Below, one piece after another: positions 1,146-61,220 of a DNA stretch of 64,000 bases. The stretch's first letter is position 1; every line of letters begins with the position of its first letter. Below the pieces are notes generated by a model. It ran no database searches. It saw only the letters and a program-made list of their open reading frames with translations, and had not been told where the DNA came from. A program made the position numbers and the translations under genes. Source of the DNA: an uncultured Bifidobacteriaceae bacterium (GTDB taxonomy: Bacteria > Bacteroidota > Bacteroidia > Cytophagales > UBA9547); assembly GCA_964565665.1 (NCBI GenBank), contig CAZMFZ010000001.1, positions 6,668 to 70,667 on the forward strand, read 5' to 3'.

Positions 1146-2483
1146 TTATTTTCCACTTTTAGTAATCCGACTTAATAGGCTGATATAGAACAATTTATAA
1201 TATTGTATCGCATACATAATGATATTTAGAAAACGTATATCTAAAGTCCGCTTCAAATACACTTGCGTAAAAACAAACCCCAAAATACACATAGCCAAAG
1301 TGCCATAAGCTGTACCTATAATTCCTAGCCAAATGATGAAAAAGTAGTTTAAAACCAAGTTTATAACAATACTTGCTAGAATATAATAAAAATTAAGTTG
1401 CGGCTTGCCAATAGAGTCGAGTATAGTGCCAAACTGCCTCGCGAAAGGCAAAAATATCACTTGCAATAGGGTAATTTGCAGTATTGGCACAGCATCGGAA
1501 TAGGTAGGTCCGGCAATTATATTTACCAAATATGGAGCAAATACAATCATTAATACAATGCCTGGGGCTACCATACACAGTATTACCCCTACCGATTTTT
1601 CATAAAGTAGTTTGGCTGCACCCAATCCTTCTTCATATATTCTTTTAGAACTTTGTGGAAACACAATTGAAGCCACAGCATTTATTGGCACATCAAATAA
1701 ATTGACAATTCTAGCCGATAAATTATACAATGCTACAGACGTGGGTGCTAGCATATAACCCAGCAACATTTGGTCGCTCGATTTGAAAAAGGTAGCTCCA
1801 ATACTTGTGCCAAACGCAAACTTCCCATAGTGAAATAGCTTTTTAATCCATTCTGTATTGAATTCAAGGCTTAATTTCAGGTATTTTCTTGAAAATATAT
1901 AAGATGAAATAGATCCGATAATAGCCCCGAAGGTCTGAAAATTCACTATTTTCAACAAACTCAAGGCATCAGCATTTATAAAATGGTATACTATATAAAT
2001 AAAAAAACTGCTTTGGCGAATGAAATTGCTGATGAAAATACCTTTGAAATCAAGATTGGCCTGCTGAATGAAATTGAACTGAGAAAATGGAATCAGGGTT
2101 ATGGTAGTGAATATGTAAAACTTGAACATCAATTCCAATTGCGGACTATGCCACGATTGTGCCAAATATCCCGCTAAAAAAAAAATAAGTACAGATGAAA
2201 TGAGGGTGAGTAAAATATTCAAAGCCAATGAGGCCGACATTACAGAAGAATGTTCTCGCTCAGGCGTAGAAGCCAAAAATTTTACCACTGCATTCTGAAT
2301 AAGGCCATTTCTAGCCATTTCTATTAAAGTAGTTACCGACAGAAACAATGCCCAGATGCCAAATTCTTCTTTTGAAATAATTCTGATAAGCAGATAGAAG
2401 CCTCCAAAACCAAAAAACATGGTAGAAAGCTTTTCCATGATGGTGAGCAAACCCGAATTAATCCAGTATCCTTTTTGTGCCAA
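1146..2483 (-). CDS. polysaccharide/oligosaccharide flippase (Wzx, MOP superfamily)
   Basis: 445-aa polytopic membrane protein with a TTG start. The N-terminus ...FGFGGFYLLIRIISKEEFGIWALFLSVTTLIEMARNGLIQNAVVKF is typical of Wzx/polysaccharide biosynthesis protein families. Confidence 0.8.
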   Translation of the reverse strand: MAQKGYWINSGLLTIMEKLSTMFFGFGGFYLLIRIISKEEFGIWALFLSVTTLIEMARNGLIQNAVVKFLASTPEREHSSVMSASLALNILLTLISSVLIFFLAGYLAQSWHSPQLELMFKFYIFTTITLIPFSQFNFIQQANLDFKGIFISNFIRQSSFFIYIVYHFINADALSLLKIVNFQTFGAIIGSISSYIFSRKYLKLSLEFNTEWIKKLFHYGKFAFGTSIGATFFKSSDQMLLGYMLAPTSVALYNLSARIVNLFDVPINAVASIVFPQSSKRIYEEGLGAAKLLYEKSVGVILCMVAPGIVLMIVFAPYLVNIIAGPTYSDAVPILQITLLQVIFLPFARQFGTILDSIGKPQLNFYYILASIVINLVLNYFFIIWLGIIGTAYGTLAMCILGFVFTQVYLKRTLDIRFLNIIMYAIQYYKLFYISLLSRITKSGK

Positions 2484-2558: not shown

Positions 2559-2596
2559 AAAAGGTTGCCAATATTTGTAGCATTTGGCAACCTTTT
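2559..2596. other. perfect 13-bp-stem hairpin upstream of the flippase gene
   Basis: AAAAGGTTGCCAA (2559-2571) pairs with TTGGCAACCTTTT (2584-2596) around a 12-nt loop. It lies about 76 nt upstream of the flippase start. Role unknown (operator, 5' UTR structure or part of the adjacent repeat element). Confidence 0.35.
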
Positions 2597-2620
2597 GAAG
2601 GAAATTATTTCTACATACTC

Positions 2621-2686
2621 TGCCCTTGCAAGAGTTTTCCACCTGAAAGCCTATTTTTTAATTGGTGAAAATGCCAACTAAGGCCA
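2621..2686. repeat. left copy of a 66-bp direct repeat flanking the GTNAC array
   Basis: tgcccttgcaagagttttccacctgaaagcctattttttaattggtgaaaatgccaactaaggcca aligns without gaps to 3031-3096 with 10 mismatches in 66 (hand count). It contains the small hairpin TTGG-tgaaaatg-CCAA. Confidence 0.7.
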
Positions 2687-2709
2687 CATACACTTCAGAA
2701 GCCATATTT

Positions 2710-2935
2710 TTAACTCTAGTGTCACAACGTGAGCCTAAAGAATAACGTTGTGCAACTAAAGAGTAACGTTGTGTAACTCTAGTGTTACGATTTATAACTA
2801 ATGAGTAGCAACGTGTAACTCTCGTGTTACAGTGAGTGACTAAAGAGTGACAATTTGTAACTCTAGTGTTACAATGAGTGACTAAAGAGTTACAGTTTGC
2901 AACTCTAGTGTAGCAATCTGTAACACTAGAGTTAC
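2710..2935. repeat. phased array of ~11 x 21-bp units (22 GTNAC pentamers at alternating 11/10-bp spacing)
   Basis: GTNAC or one-mismatch variants start at 2710, 2721, 2731, 2742, 2752, 2763, 2773, 2784, 2794, 2805, 2815, 2826, 2836, 2847, 2857, 2868, 2878, 2889, 2899, 2910, 2920 and 2931. Two dyad types alternate: GTAAC-TCTAGT-GTTAC and GTGAC-TAAAGA-GT(G/T)AC. The last unit is the exact reverse complement of the first type. No ORF; many stops in all frames. Confidence 0.85.
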
Positions 2936-3030
2936 ATTGCCTAATAATAGAAATCGCAACTAACGAATGCTAGCCATAGTATCAGTTTACTATTTCCAAA
3001 CCAAAGCCCAAAATCAAAGTGTAAAATCTT

Positions 3031-3096
3031 TGCCCTGGCAAGTGTTGTCTACCTGTAAGCCTATTAGTTAGTTGGTGAAAATGCCAACCAAAGCCA
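3031..3096. repeat. right copy of the 66-bp direct repeat
   Basis: tgccctggcaagtgttgtctacctgtaagcctattagttagttggtgaaaatgccaaccaaagcca is the same length and orientation as 2621-2686, located 410 bp downstream of it. Confidence 0.7.
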
Positions 3097-3111
3097 GTCA
3101 GATTGGGCAAC

Positions 3112-3422
3112 TTAATTTAGAGGTTTATAATTCTCGTATTTGCCGAGTATCTGCTCTAAATGATATATTTCGTTTATATCATAAAAAGTAAAACCTTCTT
3201 CACCAATGATTTGCCACTTTCTGCGTTGAGAGGCAATTATTAGGTATATTTCAGGGAAATAAGCCAATGGCAAAAGTATTTCCAACCATCTTCCAGCACT
3301 ATACCTAATTTGTCTCTAAAAGCGAACCTCAATTTGGTTACCTTAGGTTTAATATGCAGAAATCCTGGAATCATTTTATAATAGCTTCTTAAAAAGGTTC
3401 TACAAAACCCTATAAATGGCAT
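3112..3422 (-). pseudogene. possible disrupted small gene of unknown family
   Basis: The track ORF 3240..3422 (...MIPGFLHIKPKVTKLRFAFRDKLGIVLEDGWKYFCHWLISLKYT**) ends in a double stop. A second frame continues as ...YFPEIYLIIASQRRKWQIIGEEGFTFYDINEIYHLEQILGKYENYKPLN*. This looks like one gene split by a frameshift. I cannot name the family. Its 5' end overlaps the GH13 stop. Confidence 0.2.
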
Positions 3423-5076
3423 ACGAAACGCCTTTCATCGTTAGTTTTGTACCATCTTTACTGGACACTTGAATTACTTTATTCCCATTTAAAAGCAATG
3501 TTTTCTTGCCCAATTTTACAGGCACTTCTACTTCCACATCTTGTCCTGAAGGGTTCACCGCTACCAGCACTTTTTCGCCTTGTTTCTCTCTCAAAAATAC
3601 GAAAGGATATTTATCTTTCTCAGCATACAAAATTTTGAAATCGGCATCGGCATCAAGTGCAATTTGATTTCTACGAGTATTCACCAATTTCTTTGTTTTA
3701 TTTAATAATGATGTTACGTTTTTATCTTGTTCGCTTGCGTTGGGAGATTTCGAAGCAGTATCAATGCCAAGCCAAAGTTTATTTGCTTGTGCTTTAGAAA
3801 ACCCTTTATTTTCCGCATTCGACCATTGCATAGGTGTTCTCGCACCCGAACGGGGAGGATAGCAGCCCTCAACTGAGGGTTGACCGTAAAGTTGTTTCAT
3901 CCCAATTTCATCGCCATAATAAATAAATGGCACACCAGGCATACACATTTGAAAAGCGTATATAAGTTCTAATTCTTCATCTGTACGATTTACGTTTATT
4001 CTTGACAAATCATGATTTCCGACAGGTAAAGAAATAAATCCTTTGCCTTTCGTGGCTTCATAATGCATATTGTATGCTTTCAAAAAAGCTGAAATATCGC
4101 CTTTGCCCTTTATATCAAACCAACTGTTGCCATCTCCCGATACATTATTGAGGTTTCTATTGGCTTCTTTTCTGAAAAGATTGTCATATTCGGGAATCCA
4201 ATGTAGAAAATCGGCTGTGAATCCGGCCTTAATAGCATCGATAGGATACGACCACTCCGATACCATGAATGCTTGCGGATAATCAGTATCTAACATTTGC
4301 TTTACTTCTTGCCAAAATTTAAAGCCTTCGCCATTTTTATCTTTGCGAATAATTGAGCCTGCCATATCTACCCTAAATCCATCGCAACCCATGTCGAGCC
4401 AATACCTCATTATTTTTTTCATCTCATCTCTCAATGCCATCACATCGGGGTGGGTAGCTGATAGCTGCCATTTTTGAGTTGTATCCGGTTCGCCATAGCC
4501 AAAGTTAAGTGCTGGTTGATGCCAGAAAAAGTTAGTCATATAGTTGCCATCACGCTCAGAAAAGCCGTTTATCATACCGCGACCTTTTTCTTTCCCCCCA
4601 TCGTTCCATGTTGAATTTGTCCAGATATACCAGTTTGAATATTTATTTTTCTCAGCTTTGGCCGATTCTTTAAACCAAGCATGGTCGATAGAAGTGTGCC
4701 CAGGTACAAAATCTACAATTACGCGTAAGCCACGTTTGTGTGCCTCTTCAAATAGTTTCTTGGTATCGTCAGTATTGCCATATCGGCTTGCTACTTTGTA
4801 ATAGTCGCTTACATCGTAGCCTGCATCTTTAAAGGGCGATTCGTAAAACGGATTGAGCCAAATGGCGCTTACGCCAAGGCTTTTCACATAATCAAGTTTT
4901 TCGATAATGCCTTTCAAATCGCCAATACCATCGGCATTGGTATCGTAAAAAGATTGGGGATAAATTTCATAAAATACAGCCGACTTTACCCAGCTTGGAA
5001 TGTGTGGGGCTGCATTTTGCGCTTGAATGAAAATACAAATTGTAAATGTTAAAAATGCTGCAAAGATGGTTTTCAT
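3400..5076 (-). CDS. secreted GH13 alpha-amylase-family glycosidase (alpha-glucosidase/oligo-1,6-glucosidase-like)
   Basis: It carries FYEIYPQSFYDTNADGIGDLKGIIEKLDYVKSLGVSAIWLNPFYESP, GLRVIVDFVPGHTS and GCDGFRVDMA, the classic GH13 conserved regions. The start is trimmed to MKTIFAAFLTFTICIFIQAQN (signal peptide) at 5076 rather than the TTG at 5133. Confidence 0.85.
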   Translation of the reverse strand: MKTIFAAFLTFTICIFIQAQNAAPHIPSWVKSAVFYEIYPQSFYDTNADGIGDLKGIIEKLDYVKSLGVSAIWLNPFYESPFKDAGYDVSDYYKVASRYGNTDDTKKLFEEAHKRGLRVIVDFVPGHTSIDHAWFKESAKAEKNKYSNWYIWTNSTWNDGGKEKGRGMINGFSERDGNYMTNFFWHQPALNFGYGEPDTTQKWQLSATHPDVMALRDEMKKIMRYWLDMGCDGFRVDMAGSIIRKDKNGEGFKFWQEVKQMLDTDYPQAFMVSEWSYPIDAIKAGFTADFLHWIPEYDNLFRKEANRNLNNVSGDGNSWFDIKGKGDISAFLKAYNMHYEATKGKGFISLPVGNHDLSRINVNRTDEELELIYAFQMCMPGVPFIYYGDEIGMKQLYGQPSVEGCYPPRSGARTPMQWSNAENKGFSKAQANKLWLGIDTASKSPNASEQDKNVTSLLNKTKKLVNTRRNQIALDADADFKILYAEKDKYPFVFLREKQGEKVLVAVNPSGQDVEVEVPVKLGKKTLLLNGNKVIQVSSKDGTKLTMKGVSYAIYRVL

Positions 5077-12894: not shown

Positions 12895-13133
12895 ATGCAG
12901 AACTCCATAATTACAATTGATAAAGAATTCAAAATGGGCAACCAGTTTTTACAGGCACTAGAGTGCCTATCAAATCACTTTTTGACTATTTAAGTACCGG
13001 TTAGAGTGTTGCAACTTATTTAGAGGATTATCCTTATGTAAATCATGCACAGGTGCTTGCAGCTATTTTATTTATGAGCAATTGGTTTTTGTCAACTACT
13101 GAAAGTTTATACAATGAAAATATTATTAGATGA
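12895..13133 (+). pseudogene. DUF433-family (putative antitoxin) gene with a frameshift and an in-frame TAG
   Basis: Frame 1 reads MQNSIITIDKEFKMGN.. The DUF433 core continues in another frame from 12942: PVFTGTRVPIKSLFDYLSTG*SVATYLEDYPYVNHAQVLAAILF..., with TAG at 13002-13004. The shift sits at ggcAAccag, where ggcAAAccag would restore GKPVFTGTRVP. The 3' end overlaps the next gene's ATG. Confidence 0.6.
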
Positions 13134-13434
13134 AAATCTGCCCATTAAATTAAAGTTCAGATTGCAAGAGTTTGAGATTTATACTGTCCAAGACATGAAA
13201 TGGGATAGTTATAAAAATGGGGATCTAATCAAAACTGCCATTCAACATGATTTTACTATTTTAATTACTTCGGATAAAAATATTGCTTATAAACAAAATT
13301 TAGCAAATCTAGGTATTGGAACTGTTGTCTTGAATGTAAAATTATTGAAATGGCAATATATAGAGCCGATGCTCTCAAAAATCAGAACTACAATTCCAAT
13401 TATTGCTTTAGGACAGGTAATTCTGATTGATTAA
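13114..13434 (+). CDS. DUF5615-family PIN-like protein (putative toxin partner of DUF433)
   Basis: MKILLDENLPIKLKFRLQE...DLIKTAIQHDFTILITSDKNI, 106 aa and intact. The DUF433/DUF5615 gene-pair arrangement is the usual one. Confidence 0.65.
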   Translation: MKILLDENLPIKLKFRLQEFEIYTVQDMKWDSYKNGDLIKTAIQHDFTILITSDKNIAYKQNLANLGIGTVVLNVKLLKWQYIEPMLSKIRTTIPIIALGQVILID

Positions 13435-46060: not shown

Positions 46061-46657
46061 TTATTCAAACACCTCTTTTAAATAAATACTCAATCCCTCA
46101 ATCACATTCACATTTAAAGTTTCCTCGGCAGCATATTTTTTCAACAATTTGTATTTGCCGTTCTCAAGCAAAAATACATCTACAATTTGCTCAAGAGGGC
46201 TTACTATCCAGTATTCTCTTACGCCAGCCTCTTCATAAAGGTCAAATTTTACTGTAATATCGTTTTGCCTTGTAAATGGCGACAATATCTCAATAATCAA
46301 ATCTGGTGGTCCATTGCAGCCACGTTCATCAAGTAGTGATGGATCGCAAATCACACAAATATCGGGCTGCACTACTGTAAATACCTCATTATCATTGTCT
46401 TTGTGTTGTAATCGTACATCGAATGGGGCATCGAATACTTGGCATCTTTTCTTTCTCAAATACGACCCAATTTCAACCAAAATATTTTTGCTTACTCTTT
46501 GGTGGTATGTACTCGGTGCAGGAGACATAGGCACTATTTTACCCTTTATTAATTCTACCCATTCCTCAAATTGCCAAGTGAGATAGTCGGAATATGAATA
46601 TGTTTTGGAAGGGTCTAACTGAGATATATCTGTTATCATTGTAATTAGATGAGTCAA
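46061..46657 (-). CDS. Uma2-family (DUF820) endonuclease
   Basis: YSDYLTWQFEEWVELIKGKIVPMSPAPSTYHQRVS..., VVQPDICVICD, PDLIIEILSP, and YEEAGVREYWIVSP. Confidence 0.8.
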   Translation of the reverse strand: MTHLITMITDISQLDPSKTYSYSDYLTWQFEEWVELIKGKIVPMSPAPSTYHQRVSKNILVEIGSYLRKKRCQVFDAPFDVRLQHKDNDNEVFTVVQPDICVICDPSLLDERGCNGPPDLIIEILSPFTRQNDITVKFDLYEEAGVREYWIVSPLEQIVDVFLLENGKYKLLKKYAAEETLNVNVIEGLSIYLKEVFE

Positions 46658-50846: not shown

Positions 50847-51398
50847 GTGAAGCTATATAAACTAAAATTAACAGAAGAGGAGCTGATAGAAAGGCTCAAA
50901 AACAGAGATAAAACTGCATTTTCGGCTTTGTATGATAGCTACTCCGATGCACTTTATGGCATTATTATGAAAATCGTGCGTACAGATCCGCCTGCTGAAG
51001 ATGTACTCCAGGAAGTGTTTGTGAAAATTTGGCACAAAATCGATAGCTACAGCCATGAAAAAGGCACTATTTTCACTTGGATGTTAAATATCTCTAGAAA
51101 CTCAGGAATAGATACATTACGCTCGGAAGGGTATAAAAAATCTGCGGCCTTTTATGATATTGATTAGAAAACTAGTGCTATTGATAAATTTCATAGTGAA
51201 AATTATAAAGTTGAGCATATTGGCATTAAAGAAATAGTGGAGAAATTAAAACCAGAACATAGAGTAATTATCGACCTAATATATTTCAACGGATATACCC
51301 AAGCTGAAGTGGCAGAGCAATTGAGTATGCCACTTGGTACAGTGAAAACCCGAGTAAAACTAGCAATGAATCATTTAAGAGAAAATTTTGCCGACTAA
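50847..51398 (+). pseudogene. ECF (sigma-70 family) sigma factor interrupted by one in-frame TAG
   Basis: Region 2 (...DVLQEVFVKIWHKIDSYSHEKGTIFTWMLNISRNSGIDTLR) ends ...AAFYDID*, with TAG at 51165-51167. The same frame continues KTSAIDKF...EHRVIIDLIYFNGYTQAEVAEQLSMPLGTVKTRVKLAMNHLRENFAD* (region 4). The total of 552 nt is a single frame with no other lesion. Confidence 0.7.
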
Positions 51399-51401
51399 CC
51401 A

Positions 51402-52190
51402 ATGGAAGCAACATCAATAATAGAATCTGGAATAGTGGAAAGTTATGTGCTTGGCGTGGCTACTGAAAACGAGATAAAAGAGGTGGAACTTTGGGCAATT
51501 AAATCGCCTCGAATTGCTAATTTATTGATGGAAAATAGAAAAGCTTTAGAAAAATATGCCTTGGCTTTTGAACTTCCATCACCAGCAAGCGTAAGAGATA
51601 AAATTTTTAATCAAATCAACATGGAAAAGCAAACTAAAGAGATTGAATTAACACCTATTTCTCCTATAAAAACTTGGTGGGTAGCAGCTTCGCTAGTAAT
51701 ATCAACTGCGAGTTTGCTAGGAAATGTATATTATGGGACTCAAACTGAAAAATTGAAAGGGCAGCTTTCGCAAATTAGTAAAACCAACAACAGATTAACT
51801 TATGAAAATCTGATAAATAAAGCCAATTACAGAAGTGCGGCAGAGCAACTTTCACTTTTGCATAAGCACGGAAGCAAAACTACTCATTTGGAAGGTTTAG
51901 AAATTTCCAAAGAATCGTCTGCTATGATTTATTGGAATTCTGAAACCAAGAATTTGTATTTATCAATAGACAATTTACCCAAAGCACCGAATGGTAAACA
52001 ATATCAATTGTGGGCTTTGGCGGATGGAATACCTGTAAATGCTGGTGTAATTGAGCCTAATGCTCAACAAAATTCATTGATAAAAATGAAACTAACAGAA
52101 AAAGCACAAGCATTTGCCATATCGCTTGAAAATACTGGCGGTGCCGCCTCTCCAACCAAGAATGCGATATTTGCAATGGGCAATATTTAG
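51402..52190 (+). CDS. anti-sigma factor (RskA-like C-terminal domain)
   Basis: It starts 3 nt after the sigma stop. It has an N-terminal zinc-less anti-sigma helix region, a central TM segment (WWVAASLVISTASLLGNVYY), and C-terminal ...KQYQLWALADGIPVNAGVIEP...AFAISLE..GG. Confidence 0.7.
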   Translation: MEATSIIESGIVESYVLGVATENEIKEVELWAIKSPRIANLLMENRKALEKYALAFELPSPASVRDKIFNQINMEKQTKEIELTPISPIKTWWVAASLVISTASLLGNVYYGTQTEKLKGQLSQISKTNNRLTYENLINKANYRSAAEQLSLLHKHGSKTTHLEGLEISKESSAMIYWNSETKNLYLSIDNLPKAPNGKQYQLWALADGIPVNAGVIEPNAQQNSLIKMKLTEKAQAFAISLENTGGAASPTKNAIFAMGNI

Positions 52191-59588: not shown

Positions 59589-60434
59589 TTATTCCTCATC
59601 TGCCTGATGCACATGATGTAGTAAAAATACGCCATTTTTTTGTGCATAGTTATCAGCAATTTTAGAGGCCAAAGCAGCATCAACCATTGGGCTGTTGCTT
59701 ACTTTTAAATCAAGTACATTTGTTTCCGCCCCGATGCTACCAAATACACCTAAAAAATTGTTTTTGAAGTGTAGTTCTGGCGATCCTGTTTTCACTACTT
59801 TGGTATTTTCTGGCAAATCAAATGTAAGGGTTTTGTAGTTGGCATCTAAGCCTATATGGTATGAATAGTAACCATATTTACCCGTGCTTATTTCGTATCG
59901 CCCTTCCATTTTCATGAAAATATAACCAGTATTCCAAGTCCAACTCATACCTATTGTCTCGCTCAAATCGCCAGTTTTTTTTGTTAAATCATGGTTTCTA
60001 ATTTCATCTACACCTATGCTGTATGAAATTTTAGAATAACTGCCTACTGGCACACCAGTAATTTCGATATCTTCTTTAATACTTTTGGGGGTATATTCTA
60101 TTAAATGATAACTATTTGGCTCACTAAAGGATTTGCCCAAACTATCGGTAAGCACAATATTGCTAATCCAATACCTCACACTGTTTATAGTGATTTTATT
60201 TCCCGCAGCATTAGTATAGATATTAGTAAGTGCGGTTGTAGAATCCTTGATGCCAGAATTGTCTAAATTTAATTTTGTATACACACCCTCTTTTAATGTT
60301 TGGGTATCAAAATACAAACTTACCTTTCCAGTATCAGTAGGCTTCGGGTCGTCTTTTTTGGTATCTTTTGTACACGACCAATAAGTAACCAATATTGAAA
60401 TAATTAGAAATGTGTTTTTCATTTTGTTTTTCAT
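59589..60434 (-). CDS. MbnP-like lipoprotein (paralog 2)
   Basis: Lipobox ..TYWSCTKD. Motifs RYWISNIVLTD, YSIGVDEIRNH, MSWTWNTGYIFMKMEG and YSYHIGLDANYKTLTFDL are shared with the upstream paralog. As I recall, they also match the MbnP family that pairs with MbnH-type peroxidases. Confidence 0.6.
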   Translation of the reverse strand: MKNKMKNTFLIISILVTYWSCTKDTKKDDPKPTDTGKVSLYFDTQTLKEGVYTKLNLDNSGIKDSTTALTNIYTNAAGNKITINSVRYWISNIVLTDSLGKSFSEPNSYHLIEYTPKSIKEDIEITGVPVGSYSKISYSIGVDEIRNHDLTKKTGDLSETIGMSWTWNTGYIFMKMEGRYEISTGKYGYYSYHIGLDANYKTLTFDLPENTKVVKTGSPELHFKNNFLGVFGSIGAETNVLDLKVSNSPMVDAALASKIADNYAQKNGVFLLHHVHQADEE

Positions 60435-60476
60435 TTTGTTTAATTTTTAAATTAAAGTGTAAAATTATTTTTTGAA

Positions 60477-61220
60477 TTAAGGATTTACGATTTTGCTGAT
60501 AGAAAACATGCCTGCTGCATAATTCGAGCCAATCTTGTCAGCATCAGAATTTTGCATGGCTTGGTCCACCTCATCAAAATCTATTAAATAAGGGCTTCTG
60601 AACATACCATTAATATTCACCTTCACCTTGATTATGGAAGTTTTACCAGCCTCTATTTTCAAGTTCGAACTTAAATTGAAACTCAAAGATTTATAATTTT
60701 TGTCTTCACCTACATGAAATACTAACGCCCCATTTTTCGTAGGTGTTACATACTCTCCTTCAAGTAGTAGAAATTTGTAGCCCGTATTCCAATCCCATGT
60801 CATGCCACTACCTGGTGCTAATTCACCCAAATGGACAGTACTATGGTTATTTACAGAATCCACACCTATATCAAAACTTAAATTGGAATAATTGCCAACT
60901 TCTATACTATCGATTATGAAAGCTTTTTTAATAAATTCTGATGTATAGCTTATCAGGTTATAATTTTCCTTTTTAATAAAATTTAATCCTACTGCACTTA
61001 ATGATCTAAAATGAACAAAAAACTTAAATTGCTCAATTAAAAAAGTGTCGTTAGCAGGCGACAGATATTGTTTGGTATACAATTCTAAAGGAATAGTATC
61101 GATGTAGGGTTCAAAAACCAATTGAAGCTTACCTGTTTTTATTAGCATAGGTTCTACAGCTTTATCTTGTTTACAGGCATAGACAAGCAGGAGTACCCCC
61201 AAAAGTGTAACTTTTTTCAT
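60477..61220 (-). CDS. MbnP-like lipoprotein (paralog 1)
   Basis: Lipobox ..LVYACKQD, then FDIGVDSVNNH, MTWDWNTGYKFLLLEG and LVFHVGEDKNYKSLSFNL. Confidence 0.6.
   Translation of the reverse strand: MKKVTLLGVLLLVYACKQDKAVEPMLIKTGKLQLVFEPYIDTIPLELYTKQYLSPANDTFLIEQFKFFVHFRSLSAVGLNFIKKENYNLISYTSEFIKKAFIIDSIEVGNYSNLSFDIGVDSVNNHSTVHLGELAPGSGMTWDWNTGYKFLLLEGEYVTPTKNGALVFHVGEDKNYKSLSFNLSSNLKIEAGKTSIIKVKVNINGMFRSPYLIDFDEVDQAMQNSDADKIGSNYAAGMFSISKIVNP

Follow-up and report, generated by a model that had tools for sequence, protein, structure and literature searches.

A helically phased array of 22 GTNAC pentamers upstream of a polysaccharide operon in an uncultured Bacteroidota bacterium: a candidate platform for cooperative protein binding

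Why should one pentamer, GTNAC, recur 22 times at helical spacing in the gap between two chromosomal genes? The question is raised by a 64,000-nucleotide stretch of contig CAZMFZ010000001.1 (the window, meaning the whole stretch of DNA that was analysed) from an uncultured member of the Bacteroidota whose closest relatives are metagenome-assembled genomes of the Cytophagales. The pentamers form an array at positions 2710 to 2935 (no strand is assigned to the array or to its units) between a gene of the GH13 alpha-amylase family and a gene encoding a Wzx-like polysaccharide flippase. The array is real and statistically extreme. The explanation favoured here, tentatively and with somewhat less than even confidence, is that it serves as a cis-acting platform for the cooperative binding of a dimeric protein whose gene lies elsewhere in the genome.

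The array consists of 11 tandem 21-bp units arranged head-to-tail, each composed of a 16-bp core (GTNAC-N6-GTNAC) and a variable 5-bp spacer. All 22 pentamers were located at the coordinates given in an initial annotation of the window, which was made from the letters and their open reading frames alone; 14 are exact, seven carry one mismatch and one carries two. From start to start they are 11 and 10 bp apart in unbroken alternation, as the annotation had claimed, and there are no indels among the 11 units. The strict alternation is the same fact as 11 indel-free 21-bp units with two GTNAC sites 11 bp apart, so that the two statements count as one observation. Exact GTNAC sites number 14 per 226 bp at the array compared with a maximum of four and a mean of 0.35 elsewhere in the 64 kb. 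It is at a period of 10.5 bp that the exact sites have their greatest Rayleigh/Fourier power, 13.7 out of a possible 14, compared with 2.9 for the best tile elsewhere in the window; none of 20,000 shuffles matched it (top shuffle 4.2). The Fourier check against shuffled sequence that the annotation had proposed thus places the array far above all shuffles and supports its claim of 10.5 bp per site on a single face of the helix. With Tandem Repeats Finder the array shows periods of 21, 42, and 84 bp (0% indels at 21 and 84 bp), and a repeat search recovered eight in-register copies at 21-bp spacing. The edges of the array are sharp, its reading frames are full of stop codons, and the identity between units is 60% for adjacent units and 71% for units of the same type (types A and B, described below).

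The same array with equal copy number is present in three further assemblies from three samples of the same population (L141, L166, and L167) and is therefore not an assembly artefact. The four assemblies differ at a single position over 3.6–4.0 kb, and this position is the first base of the first site: at position 2710 the window and L141 have T (TTAAC), whereas L166 and L167 have G, which makes the site an exact GTAAC.

Two types of unit make up the array. The type A core GTAACTCTAGTGTTAC (2773–2788) is a near-perfect 16-bp palindrome with CTAG at its centre, and further type A cores start at 2710, 2815, 2857, and 2899; the type B core GTGACTAAAGAGTGAC is found at 2836–2851 with further copies starting at 2731, 2752, 2794, and 2878, and the array ends in an inverted variant of A (A', 2920–2935). 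The order A B B A B A B A B A A' had been described correctly, and the 42-bp super-period that results from the alternation of A and B was recovered both by Tandem Repeats Finder and in the unit alignment. Each unit is a dyad with 5-bp arms and a 6-bp centre, which is the usual layout of a site for a dimer. The centre of the unit, either ACTCTAGTGT or ACTAAAGAGT, is conserved no less than the pentamers, and columns 5, 10, 13, and 16 show no variation at all. Unit A and its reverse complement agree at all but two out of 16 positions, and this near self-complementarity accounts for the inverted last unit, for the many inverted repeats and for the strong folding of both strands, the array region folding far better than shuffles (z = −5.9 on the minus strand and z = −5.9 on the plus strand). 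The final unit, previously called the exact reverse complement of A, is indeed inverted but can equally be described as A with two substitutions because A differs from its own reverse complement at two positions.

The inverted units also bear on the idea that the array is an invertible promoter for the polysaccharide operon, with the first and last units (2711–2726 and 2919–2934) as recombination sites. Invertible promoters are classic for capsule loci of the Bacteroidota, and the 16-nt inverted repeat (94% complementarity, 192 nt apart) does lie upstream of an operon that begins with the flippase gene. However, the A units are all close to self-complementary, so that inverted repeats arise trivially, no recombinase gene is present in the window, and the array has a single orientation in all four assemblies; an invertible promoter is considered extremely improbable.

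There are hints that the mismatches between units are unevenly distributed. The GT.AC columns contain 9 out of 53 mismatches where about 20 are expected (P = 0.013 after a search over all registers), the spacer and N columns contain 21 out of 32 within-subfamily mismatches where 12.4 are expected (P = 0.002), and the four invariant columns correspond to P = 0.046. These significant tests use a partition that was suggested by the same data, and the omnibus tests of column dispersion are not significant, either for all units (P = 0.086) or within subfamilies without the diagnostic columns (P = 0.29). An early conservation test (P = 4e-4) was downgraded as partly circular, the A and B classes having been defined by central columns. 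The absence of indels despite 30–40% divergence between units points toward constraint, but whole-unit amplification keeps the register by itself, which weakens the missing indels as evidence. Overall, the case for selection or site-specific constraint within the array is suggestive, not proven.

The same data can be read as a functionless minisatellite, in which slippage or unequal crossing-over multiplied a quasi-palindromic unit of 21 bp in 21-, 42-, and 84-bp blocks, and the copies have since been diverging neutrally in an intergenic region that is itself decaying. The register would be kept automatically and the helical phasing would be a coincidence of unit length. Higher-order periods of 21, 42, and 84 bp are typical of unequal crossing-over, and the youngest 42-bp blocks (starting at 2815 and 2857) are identical at 38 out of 42 positions. 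The non-significant omnibus tests, the location of the sole single-nucleotide polymorphism in 4 kb within the array (as expected of a mutable or gene-converting repeat), the absence of the array from the loci of all relatives and its position beside a pseudogene with a frameshift and a 69-nt segment present in duplicate (all described below) agree with neutral amplification. It is opposed by the complete lack of indels among units that diverge by ~30–40%, by the concentration of mismatches in the spacers and N positions (P = 0.002 to 0.013), by a half-site grammar that matches published binding sites exactly (PMC3087709, PMC2665219) and shows strong enrichment among functional phage arrays, and by the lack of copy-number differences among the four assemblies, although this last point is weak because they represent one population. 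A neutral minisatellite is the main competing explanation, serious but on balance rather unlikely.

The preferred reading of the array as a cooperative binding platform is supported by the 10.5-bp phasing, the indel-free dyad units and the GT.AC conservation, together with published readers of GTnAC and the occurrence of GTNAC arrays in viruses. One such reader is the Streptomyces OmpR-family regulator GlnR, which binds GTnAC-n6-GTnAC; strongly regulated promoters carry four pentamers in tandem (GTnAC-n6-GTnAC-n6-GTnAC-n6-GTnAC) with sites approximately one helical turn apart (PMC3087709). The GlnR box and the cores of the array have the same half-site and the same inner spacing, and every 16-bp core fits GTnAC-n6-GTnAC. 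GlnR sites differ in having two to four pentamers at a uniform 11-bp spacing (22-bp period) compared with 22 pentamers at 11/10 spacing (21-bp period), and GlnR is an actinobacterial protein of nitrogen-metabolism promoters whereas the array lies on a Bacteroidota chromosome beside polysaccharide genes, with no OmpR-type gene in the window. A second reader is EbfC of Borrelia, a member of the YbaB family, which recognises the broken palindrome GTnAC as a homodimer, prefers DNA with two such sites to DNA with one, assembles into tetramers and octamers and changes the conformation of the DNA (PMC2665219). GTnAC is common to the EbfC site and the array (14 exact copies), but no phased arrays have been described for EbfC and the preference is known for the Borrelia protein alone: the EbfC/YbaB family is nearly universal in bacteria (PMC9610160) and its orthologues in Escherichia coli, Haemophilus influenzae, Bacillus subtilis, Deinococcus, and Caulobacter show no GTnAC preference (PMC2720974, PMC12539628, PMC9610160).

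Phased GTNAC arrays are also found in viruses. Contigs of the IMG/VR database were surveyed for five or more GTNAC sites at 11/10 spacing, with the composition-matched pentamer ACNGT as a control, and phased arrays were present in at least 120 viral contigs for GTNAC compared with 11 for ACNGT, making them at least 10 times commoner. Among 120 arrays listed, 103 are located inside an open reading frame of at least 190 amino acids, in a consistent strand relation. Domains identified among the 94 distinct reading frames are Phage_rep_org_N (36), Phg_2220_C (8), DnaB_2 (7), HTH_36 (4), DnaT (2), and RP-C (1), and homologues of these proteins in GenBank phages are annotated as replisome organiser, replication initiation protein or DnaD. 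The listed arrays contain 5–10 sites, mostly in one orientation, and usually encode a linker of 'NVT..SN'-type heptads beside a GA/CT-rich tract (for example, L005 2906–2952, L012 5978–6056, and L111 9576–9675). Because most of them lie within replication-initiator genes, as is the case for oriL in gene 38 of phage SPP1, the viral arrays are interpreted as origin iterons that form part of the initiator gene itself; in SPP1, the direct repeats of oriL are bound by gp38, the product of the gene that contains them (PMC6316719). The array in the window shares with these iterons the GTNAC sites at 11/10 spacing on one helical face, an arrangement that in the phages would serve an oligomerising initiator, but differs from them in its 22 sites, its stop-rich frames, its palindromic N6 cores and the lack of an initiator gene or unwinding element. 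No likeness in sequence between the array and any viral array was detected with nhmmer.

A smaller number of viral arrays are non-coding. The L114 array has 10 sites, alternates GTAAC and GTTAC with a 42-bp super-period and adjoins two HTH_36 genes, and the L019 array is located upstream of a 1309-amino-acid replication-type protein. Eleven contigs (L001, L004, L007, L014, L038, L039, L050, L091, L101, L103, and L112) share a conserved non-coding array of six to eight GTAAC/GTTAC sites (L039 6055–6132) placed between a prohead-protease gene and the gene of a divergent 144-amino-acid helix-turn-helix protein. This protein shows weak similarity to Terminase_5 and is a putative small terminase; it is followed by a 528-amino-acid probable large terminase. 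The array of this family may be a packaging (pac) site or a control region of the packaging operon.

These non-coding arrays invite the explanation that the array in the window is a relic or an orphan copy of a cis-site (origin iterons, centromere or packaging site) from a phage, plasmid or integrated element that has been lost, the cognate gene having been deleted. Such a site may still titrate the corresponding proteins when a related element enters the cell; the titration of initiators by iteron arrays in trans is established plasmid biology. Arrays of the same logic lie beside the HTH_36 genes in L114, the giant replication protein in L019 and the putative small-terminase/terminase pair in the L039 family, the array in the window is bracketed by 69-nt direct repeats, as an insertion might be, and decayed genes are found nearby (the DUF2442 pseudogene and, about 6 kb to the left in L141, a split C5 methylase). 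Yet no phage, plasmid or integrase gene was found in 66 kb, and a blastn search in 'distant' mode with positions 2596–3110 detected no similarity to any of 50,697 phage and 72,556 plasmid records. The unit pattern is likewise missing from viral contigs: an exact-pattern scan for the B+A core pair gave no matches, and a search for palindromic N6 cores at a 21-bp period gave two matches only, both of them in tail-fibre-like coding repeats. The longest viral array among the matches listed has 10 sites, and the array in the window is twice as long. A relic is considered clearly unlikely.

How might the favoured platform work? The binder would be a sequence-specific, probably dimeric protein of the winged-helix or helix-turn-helix type that is encoded in trans. 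Two GTNAC half-sites one helical turn apart would leave room for one dimer per 16-bp core, and with cores every 21 bp (two helical turns) up to 11 dimers could be accommodated on one face of ~226 bp of DNA. Contact between neighbouring dimers would then produce a filament or a wrapped complex. The likeliest outcome would be control of the flippase-Wzy operon (silencing, insulation or activation) or titration of the binder. Protein binding at the array, the identity of the binder and an effect on the operon are what we infer from the pattern of the repeats and from its counterparts elsewhere.

The proposed target and the remaining features of the gap are arranged as follows. Read on the minus strand, the order is the GH13 stop codon, a DUF2442 pseudogene, direct repeat copy D2b, 91 bp, the array, copy D2a, a hairpin and the flippase gene. 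The flippase gene (1146–2483, minus strand; a gene call of 430 amino acids with its ATG at 2438) is the first gene of a flippase-Wzy operon, and the array is located 227–272 bp upstream in the same transcriptional direction; the GH13 gene (3400–5076, minus strand) lies upstream of the gap. The hairpin (2559–2596, minus strand) has a perfect 13-bp stem (AAAAGGTTGCCAA/TTGGCAACCTTTT) and a 12-nt loop, and on the minus strand a T run comes after it. It separates the array from the flippase start and lies 76 bp upstream of that reading frame. It looks like an intrinsic terminator, although the terminator scan did not list it because its loop exceeds 8 nt, and it would block read-through from GH13 or the array, or attenuate the polysaccharide operon. 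A and T runs are present on both sides of it, as in a bidirectional terminator. The position of the array upstream of the operon, with the terminator-like hairpin in between, suggests operon control or protein titration.

Direct repeat D2 is 69 nt in length, and its two copies, D2a (2618–2686, plus strand) and D2b (3028–3096, plus strand, immediately past the 3' end of the DUF2442 pseudogene), are 84% identical and bracket the array. D2a contains a palindrome-like 17-nt core, TTGGTGAAAATGCCAAC, which is identical in both copies. No third copy of D2 is present in the 64-kb window, and exact-pattern scans for its core gave no matches in viral contigs. The DUF2442 pseudogene (3112–3374, minus strand) carries a 1-nt deletion after ...VLEDG (around 3285); it is 77% identical to protein P0241, which carries PF10387, and shows 72.6% DNA identity over 270 bp to relative L172. 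In L172 a 52-amino-acid partial reading frame overlaps the DUF2442 start, and the pseudogene lacks this upstream partner. A 60-amino-acid reading frame at 3243–3422 was rejected as a gene, as a phmmer search against 1.8 billion proteins gave a spurious match only and the frame is explained by the DUF2442 frameshift. The gap, which the initial annotation had called non-coding, is not empty: it holds the pseudogene, the two D2 copies and the hairpin, three features absent from that annotation.

The hairpin is central to a further alternative, in which the array is part of a transcript (a long GH13 3' untranslated region or a non-coding RNA ending at the hairpin) and tandem GUAAC/GUUAC hairpins act as RNA. 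On the minus strand, a strong terminator-like hairpin with a U run does lie downstream, the terminator scan found nothing immediately behind GH13, and the folding score (z = −5.9 against shuffles) is high. However, the plus strand folds equally well, which indicates palindromic DNA, rather than a strand-specific RNA, as the source of the signal, and single stems are only 5 bp in length. A known structured RNA was rejected, as no Rfam family reaches its gathering threshold anywhere in the window and local matches (E up to 10) are at chance level. An RNA function is considered highly improbable. Matches to sigma-70-type promoters and to terminators inside the array do not exceed those in shuffles, and the promoter consensus is not appropriate for the Bacteroidota.

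Beyond the gap, the scanned reading frames of at least 100 amino acids encode ordinary chromosomal functions, including Pth, thioredoxins, BamD, an enzyme of the radical S-adenosylmethionine/TRAM methylthiotransferase family, an M16 peptidase, ABC transporter parts, a pyrophosphatase, an aspartokinase, SucD, QueA, MiaA, an extracytoplasmic function (ECF) sigma/anti-sigma pair and an adenylate cyclase. Judged by its gene content the region is ordinary chromosome and not plasmid or phage. Pfam scans of the window detected no recombinase or transposase gene and no ParM/ParA or ParR/ParB domain in any scanned reading frame, no Trans_reg_C protein was found in 66 kb of this genome, and no tRNAs were found. 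The closest regulator gene, of the GntR/FCD type, lies at a distance of 6.4 kb. A chromosomal origin was ruled out, since there is no DnaA-box cluster near the array (matches are at chance level across the window) and no switch in GC skew; the flanks have 29–40% GC in a 36% GC genome, with no distinct AT island and no AT-rich unwinding element.

Several other observations were made in and around the window. A C5 cytosine DNA methylase gene, probably a pseudogene, is split into reading frames of 94 and 116 amino acids in L141 (8525–9178), ~1.3–2.0 kb past the left end of the window and just beyond flippase-Wzy. A 106-amino-acid reading frame (50847–51167) contains sigma-70 region 2 only and is located 235 bp upstream of an RskA-type anti-sigma gene (51402–52190); truncation or a frameshift in an ECF sigma factor gene may explain it. 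Two adjacent MbnP-family paralogues (59589–61220) lie beside a di-haem cytochrome c peroxidase (MauG-like) gene, and a perfect 12-bp tandem repeat of 2.4 copies (TGTTTTTCATTT, 60413–60441) is found at their junction. A small DUF5615/PIN-like reading frame, possibly a toxin, and a putative endonuclease of the Uma2 family (13114–13434 and 46061–46657) are isolated among housekeeping genes.

Is the array found elsewhere? Within the 64 kb neither the A core nor the B+A core pair recurs outside the array, and an nhmmer profile of the 42-bp unit matched only its own copies among 175 fetched loci. Scans of Joint Genome Institute (JGI) metagenome contigs for the D2 core and the B+A pair gave no matches, a weak negative because the JGI contig L166, which carries the array, was not returned. 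Among GTDB genomes, GH13 relatives reach no more than 62% identity and lack both the array and D2; protein look-ups provided closer GH13 relatives (78, 77, 74, 72, and 71% identity), and flippase relatives with 79% and 66% identity were retrieved with their flanks. D2 and the hairpin are missing from the retrieved GH13 and flippase loci, and the neighbour genes differ in all of them so that there is no synteny; in the 66% flippase relative, a Wzc-like gene is located directly upstream of the flippase. A tblastn search of the gap with the relatives' neighbour proteins found no remnants except gene ends. By these comparisons the array appears lineage-specific and orphan. The initial annotation had stated that a site-specific function would be doubtful if the unit were a dispersed multi-copy repeat or if orthologous loci lacked the array. 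Dispersed copies were not observed within the window; loci without the array were seen, yet in relatives with at most 79% amino-acid identity and no synteny, so that they are not decisive.

Comparison with known repeat architectures leads to a similar result. Tandem 17–22-bp repeats at approximately two helical turns are what defines plasmid and phage iterons, and the array has them, but it has no initiator gene, no AT-rich element or DnaA boxes and no mobile element in which to reside. Partition centromeres (parC of R1 and pSK41 with ParR, sopC of F with SopB) consist of helically phased tandem repeats on which a cooperative nucleoprotein filament forms, and the 43-bp repeats of F sopC, each with a 16-bp inverted repeat, are comparable to the 42-bp A+B super-unit. 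The array has the phased repeats in common with them, but centromeres adjoin parMR or sopAB on plasmids whereas the array is chromosomal, has no such genes and is unrelated in sequence. The geometry of ParR sites and iterons to which the initial annotation had likened the array is thus present (sites on one face, dyads and an iteron- or centromere-like layout), while the analogy to ParR/parC itself fails for lack of adjacent parMR genes. Repetitive extragenic palindromes (REP) are dispersed in hundreds of copies, and in bacterial interspersed mosaic elements (BIME) two palindromic-unit variants alternate in intergenic clusters; compared with REP/BIME or with miniature inverted-repeat transposable elements, the units of the array are 21 bp, strictly phased and without a second copy in 64 kb. 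A CRISPR array was rejected, as the variable parts are only 5 bp and there are no cas genes. Membership among iterons, parC, GlnR boxes, REP, CRISPR, invertons or Rfam families fails in each case on at least one defining feature, and by analogy the array resembles iterons, centromeres and OmpR-type tandem boxes only in its possible mode of working. If functional, it would be a helically phased protein-binding repeat array, which is an already known kind of element.

A number of observations weigh against a cooperative binding platform, in addition to the non-significant omnibus tests and the data-derived partition of the constraint tests. No candidate binder was identified, as replication, partition, OmpR-type, and HTH_36 genes are absent from the Pfam scans of the reading frames in the 64 kb, and a tblastn search of the window with 103 viral initiators matched the array repeats alone; the absence of an adjacent partition, replication or regulator gene pointed out in the initial annotation thus extends to the whole 64 kb. 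There is no second 16-bp core in the 64 kb and hence no sign of a regulon. The array is missing upstream of the flippase in its relatives (79% and 66% identity) and downstream of GH13 in its relatives (78–46%), and it sits in decaying DNA beside a pseudogene. A more specific proposal is that the orphan 22-site array acts as a protein sink or nucleation centre, either as a silencer or insulator of the polysaccharide operon built from a filament of a winged-helix or YbaB/EbfC-type protein, or as a decoy for phage initiators; in this specific form the proposal is improbable. The decoy version, if true, would be a defence that acts purely via DNA by soaking up incoming phage replication initiators.

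The viral survey has a meaning of its own: phased GTNAC arrays appear to be a widespread signature of phage origins in initiator genes and may predict origins in viral contigs. If the array in the window is a neutral minisatellite, it carries the caution that any indel-free 21-bp tandem repeat will look 'helically phased'. If it is bound by a protein in vivo, no longer natural array of the GTnAC-n6-GTnAC grammar would be known, and it would represent a chromosomal architecture of the iteron or centromere type without an adjacent partner gene, pointing to long-range or trans control of the polysaccharide operon, to protein titration or possibly to the mimicry of phage origins.

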